Virus record (IMG/VR): IMGVR_UViG_3300030029_000205
DNA from: a virus
Lineage: Duplodnaviria > Heunggongvirae > Uroviricota > Caudoviricetes
DNA length: 64,000 nt
Reading direction: 5' to 3' (one strand)
Shown one piece after another: positions 859 through 56,741 of this stretch. The first letter of the stretch is position 1; each line of letters opens with the position of its first letter. The notes below the pieces were generated by a model. That model made no database searches. It had not been told where the DNA came from and saw only the letters and a program-made list of their open reading frames with translations. The position numbers and the translations under genes are program-made.

Positions 859-1233
859 ATGGTAGTAAATTTTATTAAAGAGAATGCATTGCTTAAGATC
901 ATCAAAGAGTCAGATACTAAAAAGGATTTAGTAACAAGTCTAAATTCTAAGGGTATTACTTATATATGGGAAGGTAAAAACCACATTGGTGTATTCGTAG
1001 AAAGTAAAGGGTACAGCATTTATAAATTGGGGTACAAATCCTTATTTGATAGCTTTTGGTCAGGTTTGAATGTAAAATTTACTGAGTTGTCGAAAGGGTT
1101 TTACTCCTATTTGAAAAGTATATATGATATATGTGATTATGAGTTATCTGAGGACGAGGTGGGTATAGTAGCCGACTGTTATACAAGAGAGTTACCTACA
1201 AACCTTGTTGTAAACAGGCTTGTGTATTGTTAA
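859..1233 (+). CDS. hypothetical protein
   Basis: ORF with RBS AAAAGGAGG upstream, downstream of a consensus promoter at 804-832. Confidence 0.6.
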   Translation: MVVNFIKENALLKIIKESDTKKDLVTSLNSKGITYIWEGKNHIGVFVESKGYSIYKLGYKSLFDSFWSGLNVKFTELSKGFYSYLKSIYDICDYELSEDEVGIVADCYTRELPTNLVVNRLVYC

Positions 1234-1291
1234 AGAAAGGTAGTCTACATTGAGAATTGTAGGCTACCTTTATCTTGTGAGGTGTTTGAAG

Positions 1292-1540
1292 GTGAGTTAT
1301 AAATGTAGTAAATGCCGTAATGATAGGCTAAAGAAGCTGTATAATGAGACCAAAACTTGCTATGGTTGTGGTGTTTATTATGATAAAAGAAAAGGTAGAT
1401 TAGTAAGATGCTATATATCTAAAAGAGGTGCCAAAAGGTATTATAAACATACTTCTAATAGAATGATTAGAAGAAAGAGAGCAATGGGTAATAACGGTTA
1501 TTTTAAAAAAGTTTATGATGTATGGTGGAATTTATATTAA
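1292..1540 (+). CDS. small basic zinc-ribbon-like protein (CxxC...CxxC)
   Basis: ORF 1250-1540. Best start is GTG 1292, 7 nt after GAGGTG. CSKC...CYGC cysteine pairs and K/R-rich sequence. Followed by a terminator. Start is uncertain. Confidence 0.45.
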   Translation: MSYKCSKCRNDRLKKLYNETKTCYGCGVYYDKRKGRLVRCYISKRGAKRYYKHTSNRMIRRKRAMGNNGYFKKVYDVWWNLY

Positions 1541-1545
1541 AGAGA

Positions 1546-1577
1546 CAGGTTAGGTTAATTACCTAACCTGTTTTTTT
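1546..1577 (+). terminator. intrinsic terminator (AGGTTAGGT-taatt-ACCTAACCT + T7)
   Basis: 9-bp GC-containing stem followed by TTTTTTT. Near-identical to the terminator at 6628. Confidence 0.7.
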
Positions 1578-1667: not shown

Positions 1668-2024
1668 ATGAGTATAACTCGTGTAGGCGAAAAATCAAAA
1701 GCAAATAATGGTATGGAGATGAAGATTATAGGGTATCGTAGTAGTTCGGATATTGATGTCCAGTTCGAAGACGGTACTATAGTTAAGGGTAAGAGATACC
1801 AGCAGTTTAAAAGAGGTGAAATTGCAAACCCTAATGTAAAGAAGAAAACCTTAAGAGCAGACAGATTGGGTAATGAAGTAACTGCAAAAAACGGTCAGAA
1901 AATGAAAATTGTTGCTTACCGTAGTGCATACGATGTTGATGTGCAGTTTGAAGATGGCACAAAGGTTAATAATCGTTCTTATGCAAACTTTGAAAAAGGC
2001 AGCATAAGAAATCCAAATAAGTAA
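1668..2024 (+). CDS. DIDVQFEDG-repeat protein (2 repeats)
   Basis: ATG 1668, 7 nt after AAAGGGTG. Two ~50-aa repeats of NGMxMKIIxYRSxxDIDVQFEDGxxVxxKxYxxFxxGxIxNP. Paralog of 3721, 4820 and 7874. Confidence 0.75.
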   Translation: MSITRVGEKSKANNGMEMKIIGYRSSSDIDVQFEDGTIVKGKRYQQFKRGEIANPNVKKKTLRADRLGNEVTAKNGQKMKIVAYRSAYDVDVQFEDGTKVNNRSYANFEKGSIRNPNK

Positions 2025-2047
2025 GGTGTTGAAAGGAAGTAAAAAGT

Positions 2048-2452
2048 ATGGCTTTGATTGATGATTTAAGAGATAAAACCTACAAAGAAGCTGTAGATCT
2101 TTTGGAGAAATACGGCAAGGGTTGTATCGTTAGACCAACAGGATTCGGAAAGACAGGTATTCTTACAAGGTTAATCAATGATTATACCGCAGGTATCAAA
2201 GGCAAAGAACCAAGGGTATTATATTTGTACCCTAATGAGCCGATTAAGAATGCAGTGTTAAATTTCTACTACAAAAGCAAGGGTATGCGGATACCTACTA
2301 CCAGAGAAATTCCAGGAGTACAGTTTATAACTTATACTAAGTTGGCAAGAATGGATAAACCTGAGGATATAGAGGGTTTTGATATTCTGTTAAGTTGTTT
2401 ATGTCTGATGAATGTCATAAACTTGGAGGTACAAAGATTTCCAATAATATGA
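2048..2452 (+). CDS. SF2 helicase, N-terminal segment (Walker A TGFGKTG), ends just after start of motif II
   Basis: RPTGFGKTGI P-loop. Terminates ...EGFDILLSCLCLMNV. The -1 frame continues with SDECHKLGG. Confidence 0.7.
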   Translation: MALIDDLRDKTYKEAVDLLEKYGKGCIVRPTGFGKTGILTRLINDYTAGIKGKEPRVLYLYPNEPIKNAVLNFYYKSKGMRIPTTREIPGVQFITYTKLARMDKPEDIEGFDILLSCLCLMNVINLEVQRFPII

Positions 2453-3720: not shown

Positions 3721-4803
3721 ATGAGTGTTTTAAGGGACGATAGAGTGGGAGAAGTACGAAGGGCGAATAACGGTATGCTAATGAAAATATTAGCATACCG
3801 TTCCGTAAAAGATATTGATGTACAGTTTGAAGATGGTGTAATTGTATGCAATAAAAGATATAGTGCCTTTGACAAGGGTAATATAGGTCATCCTAAAGTT
3901 AAACTTTCTAAGGTATCTGACGAAGATATTAAAAGATATTTGGGTATGGAGAAAGTTATGAGTTGTGGTATGAAGGCAAAAATCATAGCTTATCGAAATA
4001 CTTTGGATATAGATATACAGTTTGAAGATGGTACTGTGGTTGAACATAAAACAATACACTCTTTTAAAACAGGTTATATTAAGAATCCTAACATAGCTAA
4101 TTATATGTCTAAGACAGGTAGGGTGGGCGATAGGGCAATAGCTAACAATGGTATGGGTATGACTATTATTAAATACATAAGTCGAGATAATATGACAGTA
4201 AGATTTGATGATGGTTTTATTAAAGAGGGTGTAAGTTATTCAAACTTTATTAATGGTAGAGTGGCTCATGATGGTATGTCAACGATGAATAAAATCTATT
4301 CTTCAAAGCATCTGCATGAGAGGAATAAGATGTTAAATGGTTTATGGGCAGAGATTATAGCTTATCGTTCTACAAAAGATATAGATGTGAGATTTGATAA
4401 CGGTGTAGTAGTTAAGAATAGGTCTTATAACAGATTTAATAAAGGTTTGATAGCCTTGCCTTTAAATAGGTTAGGTCAAGTAATTGTAACATCTTGCGGT
4501 TTAAAGGCAGAGATAGTAGGGTATCGTTCAGTTGATGATTTGGATATATTGTATGAAGATGGGTGTAAAAGAGAGCATACCTCAATAAGAATATTTAATA
4601 GTGGTAATCATCCTTTGTTTGTAACCTCAGGTAGGGGTTTACATATAAGAAAAGGGCATTCGTTTTGTGGCTTTACTAATTTGTTGAAGTCTTTTGAGTA
4701 CAATGGTGACAGCTATTTTATGTGTAAAGATGCTGATGGTAAAGGTCAGGTGCGTTCTCTCCATGATATGATGAAAGAAGCTGGGGTACATTCTAAATTT
4801 TAA
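3721..4803 (+). CDS. DIDVQFEDG-repeat protein (about 5 repeats) with conserved C-terminal FEYNG...CKDxxGKGQV domain
   Basis: Repeats RVGEVRRANNGMLMKILAYRSVKDIDVQFEDG... C-terminal tail is shared with the 4820-6016 protein. Confidence 0.8.
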   Translation: MSVLRDDRVGEVRRANNGMLMKILAYRSVKDIDVQFEDGVIVCNKRYSAFDKGNIGHPKVKLSKVSDEDIKRYLGMEKVMSCGMKAKIIAYRNTLDIDIQFEDGTVVEHKTIHSFKTGYIKNPNIANYMSKTGRVGDRAIANNGMGMTIIKYISRDNMTVRFDDGFIKEGVSYSNFINGRVAHDGMSTMNKIYSSKHLHERNKMLNGLWAEIIAYRSTKDIDVRFDNGVVVKNRSYNRFNKGLIALPLNRLGQVIVTSCGLKAEIVGYRSVDDLDILYEDGCKREHTSIRIFNSGNHPLFVTSGRGLHIRKGHSFCGFTNLLKSFEYNGDSYFMCKDADGKGQVRSLHDMMKEAGVHSKF

Positions 4804-24238: not shown

Positions 24239-24508
24239 ATGAATGCAACTCAACTTGTAAAGGCAGTAGCCGTAGAAACAGGGGTATCTGAAGACCAAGT
24301 TTCTGTTGTTTTTAATTCGGTAATTAAAAATATCTTAAATGGTGTAGCTAATGACGGTAAAGTTTCAATATCAAGGTTTGGAACATTTAAGAGGGTAGTA
24401 ACCAATGAGAGGCAGTGTTACAATCCTGTATTAAAGAAAAAGGTGGATGTACCATCCAGGGTTAAGATTAGGTTTATTCCTTCGGAATATACAAGGGGCA
24501 ATATATAA
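24239..24508 (+). CDS. hup: HU/IHF-family histone-like DNA-binding protein
   Basis: ATG 24239, 8 nt after GGAGGT. MNATQLVKAVAVETGVS..VSISRFGTFKRVVTNER..NPVLKKKVDVPSRVKIRFIPS matches the HU fold signature (RFGTF arm). Confidence 0.75.
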   Translation: MNATQLVKAVAVETGVSEDQVSVVFNSVIKNILNGVANDGKVSISRFGTFKRVVTNERQCYNPVLKKKVDVPSRVKIRFIPSEYTRGNI

Positions 24509-24716
24509 TTTACATATTTTATATGTTGTTTTCTCACCTCCAAGATTTTATAGGGTTTTGTGGGGAAGATTAAATTCTTCCCTACAAAATAATAAAATTA
24601 TTTTAAGAAAGCATTTAAGTTTTGTTAGGTATATGTTAAAATGTAAATACAATATTCAAGTTATTGTATTTACATTTTAGTATATAGAATATTTTAAAAA
24701 TGTTTTAAGAATGACT

Positions 24717-24745
24717 TGTAGCTATACTTGAAATATGGTAAAATA
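24717..24745 (+). promoter_or_regulatory. promoter TTGTAG-N17(…TGG)-TAAAAT, copy 1 of tandem duplicated promoter
   Basis: Lies inside the first 115-bp repeat unit. Confidence 0.55.
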
Positions 24746-24830
24746 TGTATATACTTAGAAAGATACAATATTTAAACTATTGTATTGCATTTCAGTATAT
24801 GAGATATTTTAAAAATGTTTTAAGAATGAC

Positions 24831-24859
24831 TTGTAGTTAGTTTTAAAATATGGTAAAAT
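24831..24859 (+). promoter_or_regulatory. promoter TTGTAG-N17(…TGG)-TAAAAT, copy 2 of tandem duplicated promoter
   Basis: Lies inside the second repeat unit, about 40 nt upstream of the ORF-free RNA region. Confidence 0.55.
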
Positions 24860-24899
24860 ATGTATATACTTAGAACCTTGACAATTATAAATATTATAA

Positions 24900-25640
24900 G
24901 TGGCAGTAATACCTCAGTGAAGAGCGACTAATCATCGTGCTGAGAATATACTGAATGGAGTAACGGTATGTTGGGATACTTACATACTAAGACTTTACTA
25001 TACATCGAGAGGTGTAAGGTAGGAGTTTCAAAGCGAAACAACCAAGGGTATATGTGCTGTAAGTAATTTTTTCATAAGGTACTTTTAAGATGACGTAGAC
25101 ATAATAGACAGCCCAGTGGGTGTTGAATCAAGGTAGCTGACAAGTGTGAGAGCTTGGGTAGCGATGTGAAAACTCAAATAAGTCTAAATTTTGCAGTTGA
25201 AGCTCAGAAATGAGTGTATAAGTCATTGATAAAGGTATGAGTAGCCCAAATCTGCAAAGAACTGTAAAAGAAAAAAGGTTTAGTTAACCTAAGAACAATT
25301 TCTGAATGATGGGTGAAAATGAAGGGTATCAATCCCTTGTACTCAGTGTACCCTAAAGGGTAGGTGTAAGAAGTTTATATGTGACGATGTATAGGCTCAG
25401 ACTTACATCAGTACTGACTGATTAATGAACTGATTATATTATGGTATGCTGAATAAAAGGCAATTGCTGTTACTTATAATATTTATAATGGAGAGGGTAA
25501 TTCCAATGGGCAATCTAAGGGTGAGTTTTTGATAGTCTTATCTCGCCCCAGAAAGACTATCCGAATTGATTTCTAATACCTGTAATATAGCTATTAGAAT
25601 AGTTCGTTTTGTAAGCTCGGCTTATCCATAAGTCGAGCAG
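24900..25640 (+). ncRNA. candidate large structured non-coding RNA (ORF-free ~740 nt between tandem promoters and the tRNA array)
   Basis: No ORF of 60 aa or more on either strand from 24680 to 26028. Numerous local hairpins, e.g. a 10-bp stem at 25612-25636 and AAGGGTATCAATCCCTT. Lies directly downstream of duplicated strong promoters and upstream of tRNAs. Confidence 0.3.
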
Positions 25641-25642
25641 AT

Positions 25643-25748
25643 ATGTGTCGATAGTTCAATTGGTAGAAACTTACGCTTGAGCTAAGGGGTATTGGTTAAA
25701 ATATTTCTTAGTAAGTATGGGATATAGGTTCGAGTCCTATGAGACACA
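25643..25748 (+). tRNA. atypical tRNA-like element (D-arm AGTTCAATTGGTAGAA, T-arm ATAGGTTCGAGTCCTAT, ~106 nt; possible intron or long insertion)
   Basis: Canonical D-loop and GGTTCGAGTCC T-loop motifs. Acceptor GTGTC/GACAC pairs. About 30 extra nt between anticodon region and T-arm. Anticodon not resolved. Confidence 0.3.
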
Positions 25749-26057
25749 ATAGAAAAATAAGCTTGCAATATGCCGTTTACAAGCGTGGAGGTTTTGAGAC
25801 AAAGCCAAAAGCGGTGGGTAGATTTATTCTTTAAATTTGTCTTAAACCTCTAAATCTATTAAGCCTTTTAAGATAAGTATTTAAAAGATTATCAAACACA
25901 CACTTTGAATACCTTATTTTAATAAAAACTTATGAATATTGGCTGTATTCATTCTTACAACGAAGGAGTTTATGGTAGTAATTTGTAATATAATTCGAAC
26001 CACTGGTGTAAATGTAAAAACACACCTTTGTTGTTTAAGAGAAAAGGAGAGTATATT

Positions 26058-26231
26058 ATGTTAAATGTAAACAATGTACCTAAATATGCAAAATCAAGAA
26101 GATTTTGGGTAATTCGTGAAGTAGGTGAAGAGCATTGGTTTTACGGAGCTTTTGATGATGTTACAAGAGCTTTTAAAAGTGCCAAGGAAGTTGAAAATGC
26201 TTTGCTTATAGAAAATACAGAGTTAATTTAA
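26058..26231 (+). CDS. small hypothetical protein (57 aa) embedded in the tRNA region
   Basis: ATG 26058, 8 nt after AAAAGGAGAG. Translation MLNVNNVPKYAKSRRFWVIREVGEEHWFYGAFDDVTRAFKSAKEVENALLIENTELI. Confidence 0.5.
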   Translation: MLNVNNVPKYAKSRRFWVIREVGEEHWFYGAFDDVTRAFKSAKEVENALLIENTELI

Positions 26232-26284
26232 AGAACCCATTGTATTTTGATAAGATTTGTAGTAAACTACAAGTAGTTAAATAA

Positions 26285-26372
26285 GCTGGTATGGTGGAAT
26301 AGGCAGACACAAGGGACTTAAAATCCCTCGGTCATTGCGACCGTATCGGTTCAAGTCCGATTACCAGCACCA
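26285..26372 (+). tRNA. tRNA-Leu (anticodon TAA), type II with long variable arm, CCA encoded
   Basis: Acceptor GCTGGTA/TACCAGC. Anticodon stem AGGGA/TCCCT with loop CTTAAAA. Variable arm CGGTC...GACCG. T-arm TCGGTTCAAGTCCGA. Discriminator A plus CCA. Confidence 0.85.
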
Positions 26373-26517
26373 TGAGGTGGGTATTAGAGTTACCCATCTT
26401 TACATCCAAAGGTAGTCCTCCAACTACATAAAGCATTTAAATGGGTGTGTTAGGTTTTCATAAAAAAACTCTCCTAAAAGAAGTCCTTGCAATTAGTGAG
26501 TGTTGCAAGGACAACCT

Positions 26518-26591
26518 GTAGATGTAGTTTAATGGTAAAATGTCAGTTTCCCATACTGAGGTTGTGGGTTCGATTCCCATCATCTGCTCCA
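26518..26591 (+). tRNA. tRNA-Gly (anticodon CCC), CCA encoded
   Basis: Acceptor GTAGATG/CATCTGC (one G-U). D-arm GTTTAATGGTAAAAT. Anticodon stem TCAGT/ACTGA with loop TTCCCAT. T-arm GTGGGTTCGATTCCCAT. Discriminator T plus CCA. Confidence 0.6.
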
Positions 26592-26890
26592 CTGGTGATT
26601 CACCAGTTTATTATAAGAAAACCAGCTTATATGTTGCAGGTAAATTTCTTATAAAAACCTACAGAAAGCAAGTCCTTGAATAAAGGTTGAGTAGGGTAAG
26701 ATGCTTTAAAGTTATGCACCTTTAGCTTAAAGATAGCAACCGTGTAAAAACGGTAAAGACGGTAGGGTATCCATTATAGAAGGGGTTAATGGTACTCTTT
26801 ATGGTGCTAATTATTCGAGTAAAGTTTCTTCAGTAATCTTGCTCGAATACAAACTGAAGTGACCAACCCCTATATAGGGGTTGGGTATAT

Positions 26891-26958
26891 GGAGATGTAG
26901 TATAAGTAGTATCTTAGCTATGTTAAGGGTATGAGTGCAAGTCTCATCATCTTCACCA
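26891..26958 (+). tRNA. short tRNA-like element (good acceptor and T-arm, reduced D region; anticodon unresolved)
   Basis: Acceptor GGAGATG/CATCTTC. T-arm ATGAGTGCAAGTCTCAT. ACCA at the 3' end. Only 65 nt before CCA, so possibly a degenerate tRNA. Followed by a terminator at 26958-26981. Confidence 0.3.
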
Positions 26959-26981
26959 CCCATCCAGAATGGGTTATTTTT
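26958..26981 (+). terminator. small terminator hairpin (ACCCAT-ccaga-ATGGGT + TATTTTT) after tRNA-like 26891
   Basis: 6-bp stem plus T-tract. Confidence 0.45.
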
Positions 26982-27078
26982 AAAGAGTGCTTACTTTCGC
27001 TGTTTCTTTCTTTTTTGTACAAATTGATTACATAACATAACCGTTCAAATCTTTATAAAGTAAGCACTCAATTGAATA

Positions 27079-27152
27079 TGCAGAAAGTAGTTTAATGGTA
27101 GAATACCCGCCTAAGAGGAGGAAGATGCAGGTTCGACTCCTGTGTTCTGCAG
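27079..27152 (+). tRNA. tRNA-like gene, type and anticodon unresolved
   Basis: Acceptor TGCAGAA/TTCTGCA, 7 bp perfect. D-arm TAGTTTAATGGTAGAAT. T-arm GCAGGTTCGACTCCTGT. Anticodon stem pairs poorly in every register. Loop region contains CCTAAGAGG. Confidence 0.45.
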
Positions 27153-27341
27153 TGTAATGATAGGTAGCAAGTGTTATATACAAGCAATAAAGAGCTCGAT
27201 TGTGGAGTATGACACTGTCATAGGTAACTAAGGTAGACTTGTGAGCAAGGTCAAGTACATCTGTTATCGAATGGTGTTAAATCCTGTGATGATATAGAAC
27301 CTGCGAAACTATATGTTATCTGTCATTCGAGTGTATATTAT

Positions 27342-27370
27342 AAGGCTACTGTTTAAGTAGCCTTTTTATT
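27342..27370 (+). terminator. intrinsic terminator closing the tRNA/ncRNA operon (AAGGCTAC-tgtttaa-GTAGCCTT + TTTATT)
   Basis: 8-bp stem plus T-tract, immediately before the DHH gene. Confidence 0.65.
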
Positions 27371-27403
27371 ATGTATTAAACAAAATAGGAAGTGAAGTAA
27401 GTC

Positions 27404-28852
27404 ATGCAAAGGTATAATTTTAGGGGTACAGCTATATGTGAAAGGTTGTTAAAGAGTTTTATAACATCTAATAGGAAGATTGTAGTATATTTTGACCCAG
27501 ATGTAGATGGGATGATAGCAGGGTATTTTGTATGTAAGTATTTAGCTATGTATGGTAAGCCTTTTAGTTGGTATGTAAATACCAATAGAAGTCATAATTG
27601 GGACTTAGATTTAGAAAAGGTAAAGGATTGTAATATTGTAGCTGTAGATTTTATGATACCTAAACAGGTAATGCAGGATATTGTAGATAATGGTGTAAAT
27701 ATTGTAAGTATGGACCATCATGTGAATGGTGATTCTTTTATACATATTATGTCTAAAGGTGAAGGGGTTATTATAAATAATCAGTATCCTTTTGAAGATA
27801 GAGAAAGAGCTTACTTATCAGGAGCAGGTGTAGTTTTTGAAACATTGTCTAATTTAGATGGTAATTTTTATACTGATGAGAATAAAGCTTTAGTAGGTTT
27901 AACCTTATTATCTGATGTCTGTAATATAGAAAACGCTTTAGCTAAAGAATATTTAACTACTCTGTACTATCATAAATACAAAGGGTACATAAGGTATTTA
28001 ATTGATGGTACTATGGGTGATAAGGATTGGGGTTTTGGTGTTCCAAGACTTGATAGAAAGTATGTTGAGTTTAAATTTTCCCCAGCTGTAAATGCTTGTT
28101 TACGCTTTAATAAAGAAACAGATGTTGTCAAGTTTTTTCTTTGTACTGCTAAGTTAGATTTAACTTACCGAGAAGAACAGAAAAAGCTTATAAAGAAGAT
28201 GCTTAAGATAGTAGAAGTACGAGAGTTTGAAAAGCTAAGGGTAGTTTTTCTTAATGATTGGGATAAGAGTGTTTCTTATTATAGTGATGTGCTGTCAAAT
28301 TTTATAGGTTTGATAGCATCTCGGTATCTTGATGGGAAAAAATCTGTATTAGCTTATTTAATAAGTAAAGATGTCTATGGCAAGAGGTATGTAAAAAGGG
28401 CAAGTTTTAGAGGTCATATAAACGGAGCAGATTACCTTAAGGAATCTAAGGGTATTATTGATGGCATAGGGCATCAATCTGCATTTGGTATATTAAATTT
28501 AAAACCAAGCAAGCAGTTATTTGAGAAAGTAAATATTGCGTGTAAAAAGGCTGAAGAAGGGTATATTAACGGCAATACGATAATACCTGTTACTAATTTG
28601 GCAATTTTTGCAGACAGAAAAGGTAGACGATGTGCTGAACATAATATGTACTGTTTGGCTCAGAATAATACATATGTAAGGTATATTGGTAGCAATGTAA
28701 AAGTAATATCAAATACTTCATCTTTTCAAAAGTATAAAGTAGATGGTATAGAAGTTAAATGCTTTGATTCTTCAATAGATTTTACTAATGGGGTAATATA
28801 TCCTATTCTGGAGAGAGGTTTTATTTATTATTACTTACAAAAAGAAAATTGA
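27404..28852 (+). CDS. DHH-family phosphoesterase (RecJ-like exonuclease / NrnA-like)
   Basis: DHH motifs: YFDPDVDGM (I), VAVDFMIP, VSMDHHVNGD (III). DHHA1-type GIGHQSAFG near the C-terminus. Confidence 0.8.
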   Translation: MQRYNFRGTAICERLLKSFITSNRKIVVYFDPDVDGMIAGYFVCKYLAMYGKPFSWYVNTNRSHNWDLDLEKVKDCNIVAVDFMIPKQVMQDIVDNGVNIVSMDHHVNGDSFIHIMSKGEGVIINNQYPFEDRERAYLSGAGVVFETLSNLDGNFYTDENKALVGLTLLSDVCNIENALAKEYLTTLYYHKYKGYIRYLIDGTMGDKDWGFGVPRLDRKYVEFKFSPAVNACLRFNKETDVVKFFLCTAKLDLTYREEQKKLIKKMLKIVEVREFEKLRVVFLNDWDKSVSYYSDVLSNFIGLIASRYLDGKKSVLAYLISKDVYGKRYVKRASFRGHINGADYLKESKGIIDGIGHQSAFGILNLKPSKQLFEKVNIACKKAEEGYINGNTIIPVTNLAIFADRKGRRCAEHNMYCLAQNNTYVRYIGSNVKVISNTSSFQKYKVDGIEVKCFDSSIDFTNGVIYPILERGFIYYYLQKEN

Positions 28853-29446: not shown

Positions 29447-30598
29447 ATGATTACAGGAACAGCAAAACTGGTAGTTGACTTGGGTAATTCTGAAACCCGT
29501 GTTAAGACTATCTACGGAAAGACAGCAAAGGGTAATGTAAGAGAAAGGTTGAGTATTATTGATAACAGGTATAGTATTGTACCTGATGAAAAACTTGACC
29601 TTTACTTGAAAGGTGATACCTATTCAAGCGAAAGCTCTTATGTTTTTGAAAGAAATGGTATTTACTATTGCAATGGAGATGTTTGTAATATTGAGATGGC
29701 TCAGACTTCTTTCAGACCTACAGCTCTTGAAAAGAAGTATGAGTCTAAGGTTACTCTGTTTACGCTTATCAATGCATTCAGACAGGGTATTGAAGATGTT
29801 GCAATATTCTCAAATTGCGACAGTGATAATGTAGATGTAGATTGGGAGGTATATCTTCTTTTGCCACCAGAAGACCTTGAGGCAGGCTCTCAGGCTATTG
29901 CAAGTATGGTTAAGAGTATTGAAGATATTAACTTCTTAATGCCTGAGCTTTATAAGAAAATCAGCATCTCAAAGGTAAAGGTATTTCCAGAGGGTATGTG
30001 TGCTTTCTTCGGAGTTCTGTTCTCTTCAAAGGGTATTGTAAGAAAGGGATATGACTATCTTATGAATCCTGTAGAATCCACGGTAATATTTGATATCGGT
30101 GCAGGTACTACTGACATTGTTATGATTAGGGGTAGTCAGATTGTACAGAGTTCAAGATTTACTAAGGAAATCGGTGGTAACAATGTACATAGATTGGTAC
30201 AGAGAAGCCTCAGAAGCAAGGGTATTTCACTTCCAGATGAAGTAGTTCGTGAAGGAGTAAATACAGGTTATGTTAAGAGTGGTTCTCGTTCTATTGATAT
30301 CGCTGAAGAGATTGCATCTGCTAAGCAGGCGGTATCTAATCAGCTTGTAGACGCTGTACAGGAATTCTTTGAAAGTTCTATGATTAGTATTAGAACTATT
30401 TCAAATATTCTTGTATGCGGTGGCGGTGCTGAAGTATCTTCTAATAAGGAGATTAAGCCTATTTCTGATTATATTGTAAACTATATGAAGAGATTGTCGC
30501 CAGATATTAAGCTTGTAAAAATTCCAGAGGACGAAGAGGGTAATCCTGTTTCATCAAGATTGTTAAATATCAATGGAGCAGGTATTCTCGCAGAATAA
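29447..30598 (+). CDS. actin-like ATPase (ParM/StbA/Alp-family)
   Basis: Actin-fold motifs: LVVDLGNSETRVK (phosphate 1), IFDIGAGTTDIV (phosphate 2), ILVCGGGAEV (adenosine). RBS TAGGAGG. Confidence 0.8.
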   Translation: MITGTAKLVVDLGNSETRVKTIYGKTAKGNVRERLSIIDNRYSIVPDEKLDLYLKGDTYSSESSYVFERNGIYYCNGDVCNIEMAQTSFRPTALEKKYESKVTLFTLINAFRQGIEDVAIFSNCDSDNVDVDWEVYLLLPPEDLEAGSQAIASMVKSIEDINFLMPELYKKISISKVKVFPEGMCAFFGVLFSSKGIVRKGYDYLMNPVESTVIFDIGAGTTDIVMIRGSQIVQSSRFTKEIGGNNVHRLVQRSLRSKGISLPDEVVREGVNTGYVKSGSRSIDIAEEIASAKQAVSNQLVDAVQEFFESSMISIRTISNILVCGGGAEVSSNKEIKPISDYIVNYMKRLSPDIKLVKIPEDEEGNPVSSRLLNINGAGILAE

Positions 30599-42784: not shown

Positions 42785-44458
42785 ATGGCAAATAGAAGGG
42801 AACATTTGAACAATGGTGACCTTGTATTAAACGGTAGGTATGAAATACTTAAATGTATTCATTCTAAAGGAATGGCTAATGTTTATCTTGTAAGAGATAC
42901 TCAATTAGGTAAACAATGGTGCTTAAAAGAGATTAGGTTATCTCAAGCAGGTAGGGAAAATATTGAGTATATAAGTCTTATGCAAGAGGCAAACATACTG
43001 CGTTCCTTAAATAATGAGAAGATACCAAGAATTACTACCATTGATAATGATGGTGACTCTTTGTTTGTGGTAATGGATTTCTTAGACGGTGTTACTCTAA
43101 AGGATTTTGTACAGGAGAAAGGCAGAATACCTGAAGAGCTGGCTGTTAAATGGATGATTCAGATAGTACAAGCCGTTGGGTATTTGCATAGTGAGAGGTC
43201 AAATAAGAAGCCTATCTTTTACAGGGATATGAAACCAGATAACTTAATGATTAGGTCAAATGGTGTAATAAATATATTCGATTTCGGTATTAGTGTTAGG
43301 ATAGAGAATCCTAATCAATTACCAGAATACACTCTGGGTACTCCAGGTTATGTTGCTCCAGAGCAGAAAAAGAAAAATTTACCTATGGATTTAAGGTCAG
43401 ATATCTATTCAATGGGAAGAACTTTTTATTTTATGTTGACAGGGGTAGACCCAAGGGGTTTCATAGGGGAGAAGTTAAAACCGATTAGTGATTGGAGTCC
43501 AGATGTTTCGCCAGTATTGATATCTATTGTCAATAAATGTATGGAAGAGAATCCTAACGATAGATATCAGAATTGTGAAGAGTTACAGTATGCTTTAGAG
43601 AATTACAAGTATTCTGATGAAAAACATCGTTCTTCCGCAAAGAGGAAGGTTAAGGTAGTAATTGGATTAGCCGTAGCAGGCATTACAATGGGTATCTTCA
43701 GTATAATTCCTTTTGGTATAAACGGAGCTCAGTCTAAAGATGCTTACAATAAAGCTTTAGTAGTTGCTCAGCAAAGTGGTAGATTAGAAGATTATGATAA
43801 GGTGCTTTCTATGAATCCACTAAGCATACCACCATATGAAGGGTATATAGATGCTATTAAGGAAGATGGTGTTTTTTCTTTAGATGAAGAAAAAGGTCTA
43901 TTAAATCATATAAATCCTAATTTAATAGACTTAAAAAATGATAAGGATTATGGTAAAATTGCTTTTGATATAGGTAAGCTATATTGGTTTTACTATCCAT
44001 CTGAAGATGGAAAAACCTTGTCTATAAAATGGTTTGATGATGCAATAAGCAGTGGTTTTAATAAGGAAGAGTCAACCGCTTATTACAAGTTAGGAGTGTT
44101 TAATAGAGATATTTCTAAATCTGTTAAAGAAGCAAGTGATAGCGGTATGTACAAGGATTATTGGGACAATCTGTTATCTATACAGAATATGGATACAAGT
44201 GATATAATTACTTTACAGACAAATATTTCTATTGCTGAGTGTATTTCAACATATGCATATAACTTAAAGAAAGATGGGGTATCTTATGAAGATATTTCAA
44301 AAGAATTGAAGTTATTAAATGGTTTTGTTAGCAGTTATAAGGTAGATAGTTCTACTTTAGATACTATTAAGTCCTTGTATGCTGAATTAAAATCTGATTT
44401 GGAGGGGTTAAGTGATAGGGTTGATGTGATTTATGGTAAAAGTGGAGGTGGTAATTGA
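42785..44458 (+). CDS. Hanks-type Ser/Thr protein kinase with transmembrane segment and extracytoplasmic C-terminal domain
   Basis: YEILKCIHSKGMANVY (G-loop), WCLKEI (Lys), YRDMKPDNLMI (catalytic loop), DFGIS, GTPGYVAPE. TM VVIGLAVAGITMGIFSIIPF, then ~270-aa domain. Confidence 0.85.
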   Translation: MANRREHLNNGDLVLNGRYEILKCIHSKGMANVYLVRDTQLGKQWCLKEIRLSQAGRENIEYISLMQEANILRSLNNEKIPRITTIDNDGDSLFVVMDFLDGVTLKDFVQEKGRIPEELAVKWMIQIVQAVGYLHSERSNKKPIFYRDMKPDNLMIRSNGVINIFDFGISVRIENPNQLPEYTLGTPGYVAPEQKKKNLPMDLRSDIYSMGRTFYFMLTGVDPRGFIGEKLKPISDWSPDVSPVLISIVNKCMEENPNDRYQNCEELQYALENYKYSDEKHRSSAKRKVKVVIGLAVAGITMGIFSIIPFGINGAQSKDAYNKALVVAQQSGRLEDYDKVLSMNPLSIPPYEGYIDAIKEDGVFSLDEEKGLLNHINPNLIDLKNDKDYGKIAFDIGKLYWFYYPSEDGKTLSIKWFDDAISSGFNKEESTAYYKLGVFNRDISKSVKEASDSGMYKDYWDNLLSIQNMDTSDIITLQTNISIAECISTYAYNLKKDGVSYEDISKELKLLNGFVSSYKVDSSTLDTIKSLYAELKSDLEGLSDRVDVIYGKSGGGN

Positions 44459-56682: not shown

Positions 56683-56711
56683 TTGTAGTTTATTGTAATA
56701 TATGGTAAAAT
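56683..56711 (+). promoter_or_regulatory. promoter TTGTAG-N17(…TGG)-TAAAAT
   Basis: Hexamers and spacing. After the terminator at 56635-56668. Confidence 0.5.
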
Positions 56712-56741
56712 ATTAATATAAAACAAAAGGGGGTAAATAGT

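Follow-up and report, generated by a model that had tools for sequence, protein, structure and literature searches.

A probable full-length ROOL RNA gene with a conserved trailer and a tRNA-shaped neighbour in an uncultivated low-G+C phage

Positions 24884-25489 (+) of the DNA analysed here, a stretch of 64,000 nucleotides of the IMG/VR virus record IMGVR_UViG_3300030029_000205 (Caudoviricetes; hereafter the window), very probably encode a full-length ROOL RNA (Rumen-Originating, Ornate, Large) of an uncultivated low-G+C phage, a further member of a known RNA family. Rfam 15 covariance models were scanned over the whole window and, in a second, permissive run, over 24500-27500 at E values up to 10. 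The ROOL model (RF03087) matches 24889-25481 (+) with 252 bits (gathering score 99.1, E 3e-56), spans model positions 1-574 of 574 with no truncation and is the sole large match in the window. The closing helix P1, read from the sequence, pairs 24884-24910 with 25463-25489; since it reaches both 24884 and 25489, the gene is given these limits, with a length of 606 nt and 24 helices. An earlier reading of the letters alone (the sequence-only reading) had placed a large non-coding RNA at 24900-25640, as a member or a new relative of the GOLLD and ROOL classes, and had proposed a covariance-model scan as a check. Membership was borne out, with ROOL matched in full and far above threshold. The proposed novelty was not: the RNA is an ordinary, somewhat divergent RF03087 member and no new relative class. 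The extent also needed correction, as the last ~150 nt of the proposed region are a separate trailer that is absent from one relative.

Covariance alignment recovers the conserved ROOL blocks CAGUGAAGA, GGGAUAC, AAUAGAC, UUGAAG..GAAA..GUAUAA, GUAGCCCAAA, UUCUGAAUGAUGGGUGAAA, GGUAUCAAUCC, AAGAAGU and GCUCAGACUUA. The loop consensus GUGGCAA is substituted in the window and belongs to a covarying kissing pair discussed below. The variable linker typical of the family is present as 50 nt at 25251-25300 (+), between GUAGCCCAAA and UUCUGAAUGAUGGGUGAAA (it is also placed between GUAGCCCAAA and UUCUGAAUG), aligned to the unstructured model positions ~343-398, and insertions and deletions among the relatives are concentrated in it. 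In the solved structure this linker is disordered and faces the cage interior (PMC12286853). The three stable hairpins that had been quoted from the region all exist: AAGGGTATCAATCCCTT (25322-25338) and TACCCTAAAGGGTA (25349-25362) are two consensus hairpins of ROOL, and the third belongs to the trailer.

It is exceedingly improbable that the region is instead another class of RNA (GOLLD, group I/II intron, RNase P RNA, tmRNA or HEARO), a decayed coding gene or an untranscribed spacer. All that favours these alternatives is the absence of open reading frames (ORFs), which had been described correctly: no ORF of 60 aa or more occurs on either strand in 24680-26028, where the longest has 42 aa, and the only one of at least 60 aa wholly inside 24680-27403 is 26028-26231, with 67 aa from TTG and 57 aa from an ATG at 26058 that follows AAAGGAG. 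Across 24500-27500, at E values up to 10, GOLLD, HEARO, RNase P RNA and group I/II introns gave no match, and the tmRNA family gave matches at chance level only (beta_tmRNA 10.8 and tmRNA_permuted 13.9 bits against thresholds of 84 and 47), one of which sits on the minus strand within ROOL. The same tool does detect a GOLLD in L045, one of the ROOL loci retrieved from other phages. The region is also spanned in full by the ROOL match and holds no conserved reading frame, and its substitutions track base-pairing rather than codons.

Relatives were collected by pattern searches. A conserved ROOL 19-mer retrieved 94 IMG/VR loci; L051, on a 140-kb contig, is syntenic with the window. A clade-specific 23-mer retrieved five closer relatives from metagenome assemblies (L099, L097, L095, L096 and L098); their contigs reach 190 kb, and their identity over the operon is 86-98%. 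The same ROOL gene is thus found on six related uncultivated phage contigs, one of them labelled human gut metagenome; OBXI01000052.1 and ERZ773194 NODE-24 are among these 139-190-kb relatives.

We examined the secondary structure by projecting the Rfam consensus onto an alignment of six full-length homologs, and conserved structure with compensatory changes, which the sequence-only reading had proposed to look for in such an alignment, is what the relatives display. Before register correction, 81.7% of cells were in standard pairs. Four helices paired poorly at first and well once the 3′ partner was moved by one column; after this correction 89.8% of cells pair, as opposed to 34-46% when the partners are slid by 1-3 columns, and each of the 24 helices is at least 73% paired. 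Changes on both sides occur at three pairs and wobble-type changes at ~13. Between the window and L051, 12 consensus pairs are changed: three by double compensatory change, six kept by one-sided change, one broken and two non-canonical in both. Covariation within the clade is supportive, short of decisive; at the level of the family, ROOL covariation has been described in the literature (PMC5737381, PMC12286853).

A more specific signature comes from the quaternary structure. Cryo-electron microscopy has revealed ROOL as a protein-free cage, which is a D4-symmetric octamer in the case of env-120 and E. faecalis and hexameric in that of L. salivarius. In this cage, bridge B4 is a conserved inter-subunit kissing pair of loop L8 with junction J6/8 that covaries across the family (PMC12286853). 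In the window, UGAG at 25147-25150 (+) lies in the loop that caps the long stem (L8 as numbered in PMC12286853), and J6/8, directly 5′ of AAAUAAG, holds the complementary CUCA at 25173-25176 (+). Compared with the family consensus UGGCA:UGCCA, UGAG:CUCA amounts to two double compensatory changes. CUCA shares its register with UGCCA, CACCA, GUCAA, UUCCA, UGCUA, UACCA, GCACA and AUCA of other ROOLs, and these two sites are filled by no fewer than 12 different complementary pairs across the other fetched ROOLs. Since UGAG and CUCA are complementary and the same sites covary elsewhere, the contact needed for cage assembly is preserved. By analogy with the solved structures, the RNA would fold to a flat monomer and form, with no protein involved, a closed homo-oligomeric cage of eight or six subunits, with the 50-nt linker probably turned toward the interior. 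Two ROOL copies on one 402-kb contig were considered as a case of differing kissing sequences; both carry UGGU:ACCA, and the idea was dropped.

The gene is also conserved as a unit. ROOL is 99.7% identical to the window in L099 (flanking protein genes 97-99%), 97.2% in L095 (~90%), 96.7% in L096 (88-92%) and 92.5% in L051 (72-83%); among the five relatives whose ROOL is complete, it outdoes the flanking protein genes in conservation in four, the exception being L097. ROOL is under purifying selection with compensatory changes. As a separate observation, the L097 ROOL (1477-2088) is 93.2% identical to the window, with flanks at 94-96%, and in the alignment, inspected by eye, it has several variants in common with the distant L051 allele, which suggests an exchange of ROOL alleles between related phages.

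Several points weigh against reading the gene as an intact, cage-forming ROOL. Its 252 bits are the lowest score among the scanned ROOLs (others 285-350), and its sub-clade as a whole scores 246-257 bits as against 285-350, in a range that covers the relatives with a complete copy and leaves out L096 (unscanned) and L098 (ROOL copy cut by the contig end). The six homologs are close (96% mean column identity), which makes the covariation within the clade thin; the one-column shift in four helices was derived from these very sequences, which favours it; and 32 of 500 shuffles reached the count of double changes. In the 3′ hairpin, the apical loop reads GACG where the consensus has UCGCU, with only a CG core in common. 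In the solved ROOL structures the self-complementary apical loop L18 (bridge B6) joins the half-shells (PMC12286853), a comparison in which the numbering of the structures is not mappable onto the Rfam model, and, given the divergence of the loop, the window's ROOL may be an octamer or a hexamer. A low score and a diverged apical loop would also suit an inactive relic hitch-hiking in the tRNA region. We consider such a relic very improbable: the gene is better conserved than the neighbouring protein genes in those four of five relatives, its stem changes are compensatory or of wobble type, the kissing pair was kept through double changes, and it has a conserved promoter-like module of its own.

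This module forms a tandem direct repeat of 115 nt upstream of ROOL, at 24647-24760 and 24763-24875 (89% identity), with a palindrome of 7-bp arms in each copy (ATACAAT-N9-ATTGTAT at 24647-24669 in copy 1). On the (+) strand, copy 1 has TTGTAG at 24716-24721, a 17-nt spacer and an extended -10 element, TGgTAAAAT, at 24736-24744, and the promoter scan gives TTGAAA-16-TATACT as an alternative pair in this copy; copy 2 has TTGTAG at 24831-24836 and TGgTAAAAT at 24851-24859. The ROOL-proximal copy is found in every relative, 24840-24879 is 98% conserved, and the proximal copy of L099 carries a perfect TATAAT. L051 and L095 carry just one module, as against two in the window and in L099, L097 and L096. 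The claim of strong tandem promoters therefore holds for the repeat and its promoter-like hexamers; their strength had only been inferred, and it is a point against it that promoter-like sites are unenriched in this AT-rich region in a generic scan (20 versus 15.7 ± 4.5 expected).

Going by these motifs, transcription would start near 24866, ~18 nt before P1, from the TTGTAG-17-TGgTAAAAT promoter, and the tandem doubling would raise ROOL output. ROOL would then be the first product of a ~2.5-kb, mostly non-coding RNA unit, predicted to continue with the trailer, a tRNA-shaped element, a small structured RNA, a 57-aa ORF, a tRNA region (three tRNAs and one further tRNA-like gene) and a terminal structured RNA, and to be closed by the terminator at 27342-27364. 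The intrinsic terminator that had been said to close the interval is indeed there, at 27342-27370 (+): a 9-bp stem with four G-C pairs at 27342-27364, plus a T run, invariant in the relatives. Terminator-like sites number 6 in the region against 1.5 expected; the one at 27342-27364 is the sole good intrinsic terminator on the (+) strand, and weaker ones follow two of the tRNA genes. A second promoter core (UAUAUGGUAAAAUAUUAAU) lies at 56699-56717 of the window, a hint that this phage makes repeated use of a promoter type formed by TGgTAAAAT and its flanks. Upstream of the modules, directly after the gene of an HU-like protein, a 10-bp hairpin (GUGGGGAAGA-uuaaau-UCUUCCCUAC, 24560-24585) lacks a clean U run; its stem seems, by eye and uncounted, to covary in L097 and L051, and it may insulate the ROOL promoters from upstream transcription.

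The trailer occupies 25490-25643 (+), 154 nt outside the ROOL model, and is nearly invariant in five relatives; L051 is without it and has a tRNA-shaped gene 27 nt after ROOL. It folds with a z-score of -2.69 relative to shuffled sequence. One helix pairs GGGUGAG (25519-25525) with CUCGCCC (25542-25548), and a second one, overlapping the first, pairs GAUAGUCUU (25531-25539) with AAGACUAUC (25553-25561); the two could form an H-type pseudoknot or be two alternative states of a switch. Further hairpins lie at 25562-25606 and 25615-25638. The latter is the third of the hairpins quoted earlier (GCTCGGCTTA-tcca-TAAGTCGAGC), ~3 nt away from where it had been put; its variable loop and one G.U to A-U change fit a purely structural hairpin. 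The trailer has no Rfam match above chance, no match among annotated phage records (blastn) and no IMG/VR pattern hits, and neither an nhmmer trailer profile run on 100 loci nor the IMG/VR pattern found a trailer-like sequence beside other ROOLs. A decayed tRNA was considered on the strength of one weak nhmmer match (E 0.03) to the T-arm/acceptor half of a tRNA-Gly, and the idea was dropped because the trailer is nearly invariant and the tRNA model gives no match. A self-cleaving ribozyme was likewise set aside, as the pseudoknot has no Rfam match and a helix order unlike that of the HDV-like fold; a ribozyme of some new class is conceivable. As candidate readings, which we do not rank, the trailer may be part of the mature ROOL as a 3′ domain, a small RNA in its own right, or an element of processing or stability; it could also be a further undescribed module of the system to which ROOL and its putative tRNA-shaped partner would belong.

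Directly after the trailer, 25644-25749 (+) is a tRNA-shaped gene with an expanded anticodon arm. With the Rfam tRNA model (RF00005, threshold 29) it scores 27.1 bits, and homologs reach 29.3 and 31.9 bits. Its acceptor stem of 6 bp is followed by tandem G.A/A.G, the D and T arms are normal, and the anticodon stem, CUUAC/GUAAG, encloses ~36 nt rather than the usual 7-nt loop. The acceptor and anticodon stems covary among homologs, and the acceptor, D and T arms are tRNA-like; in its anticodon arm the element departs from an RF00005 tRNA, a cloverleaf whose anticodon is assignable and stands in a 7-nt loop. ARAGORN calls Ser-UGA in the window and Glu-UUC or Ser-AGA in the L051 homolog; as the calls differ between close homologs, the element is unlikely to decode. 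A short spliced intron was considered, but the introns proposed by ARAGORN vary in length and position among close homologs, and we treat the element as having an expanded arm.

Such elements recur after ROOL. A tRNA lies at or within ~60 nt of the ROOL 3′ end in ~24 of 85 ROOL loci. ARAGORN in intron mode, applied to ~100 loci with 249 ordinary same-strand tRNAs, finds 13 expanded-arm tRNA-shaped genes (expansions of roughly 10-50 nt), 11 of which lie 0-260 nt after ROOL, in at least five lineages. With the Rfam tRNA model, all six hits longer than 100 nt in 11 loci sit just downstream of ROOL. The other expanded genes include L051 471-571(-), L010 4840-4957, L017 4435-4570 (= L050 6104-6239), L029 5340-5458 (= L048 2068-2187), one in L036 just 3′ of its ROOL, and one in L015/L031 ~175 nt after the ROOL motif. 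As to the insertions themselves, those of L017/L036 and L029/L048 have a GGTCT..AGACC-type hairpin and a TAACAGCAA motif in common, and that of L010 has the hairpin and a looser form of the motif; the L017 insertion lies within an otherwise normal tRNA-Leu (UAA) and is bordered on both sides by a CGGAC direct repeat.

Bacterial RNase P requires just the acceptor and T arms of its substrate, so an element that serves as a cleavage handle is free to lose its anticodon loop. We hypothesize that RNase P cuts at 25643/25644, on the 5′ side of the tRNA-shaped element, and thereby forms the 3′ end of the ROOL-containing RNA, a proposal for and against which we see the case as evenly balanced. The stable hairpin at 25615-25638 would stay behind as a 3′ cap. 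What counts against this is the intervening 154-nt trailer, with which RNase P would free ROOL plus trailer and not ROOL alone.

The same cut would suit an alternative in which ROOL and trailer form one mature RNA of ~760 nt, the trailer being a clade-specific 3′ domain such as a cage-displayed module, since cleavage at 25644 would leave the two joined. We regard this alternative as possible and hold it tentatively. The trailer abuts P1 with neither terminator nor tRNA in between, it hardly varies among five relatives whose differences elsewhere amount to 2-14%, and it folds better than shuffled sequence; yet the L051 ROOL is 92.5% identical and has no trailer, its tRNA-shaped gene following 27 nt on, the Rfam ROOL model stops at P1, and nothing like the trailer was found beside other ROOLs in the searches described above.

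A further conjecture, which we put forward as rather unlikely, is that ROOL has a dedicated partner, the tRNA-shaped RNA, possibly as a cofactor of the cage or as its cargo, either tethered or released. The conjecture builds on where the arms expanded by 30-55 nt occur: tRNA-shaped RNAs with such arms directly follow ROOL in at least five unrelated phage lineages, whose tRNA arrays hold hardly any others. Should the partner prove more than a remnant handle for RNase P, the ROOL family would gain its first concrete functional lead.

The rest of the predicted unit is also conserved. At 25957-26040 (+) lies an RNA element with a three-way junction, with 28 pairs, 6 of which show compensatory changes across seven genomes, and with the invariant junction blocks GGAGUUUAUGGUAGU and CGAACCACUGGUGUAA; it precedes the ribosome-binding site of the 57-aa ORF and has no Rfam match. 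A 16-mer from it gave 12 hits in IMG/VR, mostly by chance, and L104 alone resembles the element. This look-alike (~3870-3960 of a 268-kb phage contig) is followed by a tRNA and no ORF, so the element may be a free-standing small RNA rather than a leader. The sequence-only reading had named a single 57-aa gene as the sole ORF of the interval, and it is a real gene (26058-26231, +): it is intact in seven genomes, with changes biased to third codon positions. The protein has no family match.

The tRNA array that had been noted beside the region consists of three ordinary tRNA genes and two tRNA-like genes, all within 1.7 kb downstream of ROOL. ARAGORN and Rfam agree on tRNA-Leu (UAA) at 26285-26372 (+) and tRNA-Gly (CCC) at 26518-26591 (+). 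The tRNA-like gene at 26891-26958 (+; 37.1 bits) is conserved in the relatives and has an encoded CCA end, a 5-nt D loop and a 3-nt anticodon loop (UAU), with which it would be unable to decode in the usual way. A weak tRNA of 74 nt at 27079-27152 (+; 30.2 bits) is called Leu (AAG) by ARAGORN and is without the long variable arm of leucine tRNAs; in its homologs in L095, L096 and L098, G replaces U just before the anticodon (CCUAAGAGG to CCGAAGAGG). From this last tRNA to the terminator, 27153-27341 (+), a nearly invariant segment of ~190 nt has a fold z-score of -3.16 and 94-100% identity in relatives that differ by 10-14% elsewhere. It forms a closed multi-branch fold in which none of the 7 variable base pairs is broken (14 variable columns), matches no Rfam family and is a candidate further non-coding RNA.

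Phage replication and maintenance genes lie around the ROOL unit, for a UvrD-like helicase, an HU-like protein, a RecJ-like DHH protein and an actin-like partition protein; the window further encodes an SbcC-like protein, and its genes are all on the (+) strand, with 32% G+C and a strong GC skew. The actin-like protein (ParM/Alp7A/MreB-like) lies at 29447-30598, and a serine/threonine kinase at 42785-44458. The helicase is ~25% identical to those of Herelleviridae-like phages. Most large ORFs, including those of 1464 aa and 2044 aa, are without a family in PHROGs and Pfam, for which reason the phage cannot be placed. In a blastn search of 3 kb against annotated phage records the tRNAs alone matched, with no close isolate; no IMG/VR relatives were found through the RecJ-like protein; and the clade 23-mer had no hits in species-representative genomes, where no host prophage was found. 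The phage belongs to a poorly known lineage with genomes of roughly 140-190 kb.

Two observations concern other ROOL loci. In L045, a 28-kb viral contig, a ROOL at 972-1561(-) (328 bits) stands beside a GOLLD at 1950-2417(-) (173 bits), on the same strand and in a tRNA array. The 3′ part of the OLE RNA model gave matches of 84-88 nt with 53 bits (threshold 50) in tRNA arrays of a 402-kb phage contig, at L050 507-590(-), L017 10084-10167 and L036 2050-2137(-); these may be tRNA-like false positives or an OLE-related module.

What ROOL does for a phage can be framed by earlier work, which describes cage assembly, high abundance and non-essentiality (PMC12286853, PMC12990946, PMC5643018). In L. 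salivarius, ROOL is more abundant than 16S rRNA, very stable and deletable without a clear phenotype (PMC5643018), and the authors of the structures suggest that the cage encapsulates tRNAs, ribosomal particles or other molecules (PMC12286853, PMC12990946). By analogy, the window's ROOL would most likely be an abundant, non-essential infection helper acting on tRNA or on the translation apparatus.

Few natural RNAs are known to form protein-free cages that exceed a ribosome in size; ROOL is one of them, and a single added member alters little by itself. This locus is useful for its compact promoter-like module, the copy number of which differs between close relatives, and for six close homologs that are natural compensatory variants with a private kissing loop, suited to tests of assembly specificity. 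Its gene order adds to the recurring succession of ROOL and a tRNA-shaped gene without a usable anticodon loop, which points to maturation by RNase P. The leads we see are this expanded tRNA-shaped gene, the invariant trailer and the two further conserved structured segments.

Among known systems, the closest is the ROOL family itself (RF03087; Weinberg et al. 2017, PMC5737381; the L. salivarius long non-coding RNA reported by Cousin et al. 2017, PMC5643018; the cryo-EM cages in PMC12286853), to which the window's RNA is alike in its full-length match, helices and motifs, its variable linker, its complementary L8:J6/8 pair and its phage setting by tRNA genes. It differs as part of a divergent sub-clade with the private kissing pair UGAG:CUCA and an altered 3′ hairpin apical loop; it also comes first, preceded by a promoter-like module of its own that is in part duplicated, in contrast to the many other ROOLs within a tRNA array, and most of its clade carries the conserved 154-nt trailer. 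GOLLD RNA (RF02032) is likewise a large, ornate, phage-borne RNA by tRNAs that forms a protein-free cage, but its sequence and fold are unrelated. The prohead RNA of phi29 is also a phage RNA that forms a homo-oligomer through intermolecular loop-loop pairs with covarying sequences; it is small, builds a ring at the portal for DNA packaging and is unrelated in sequence and fold. In MALAT1-mascRNA and in mitochondrial tRNA punctuation, a tRNA-shaped element recruits RNase P to form the 3′ end of an RNA. The resemblance to these is one of mechanism, a downstream tRNA-shaped handle, with no homology and with a cleavage that in the window is only proposed; a handle of the mascRNA type needs its acceptor and T arms and not a working anticodon loop, which fits the expanded arms that follow ROOL.

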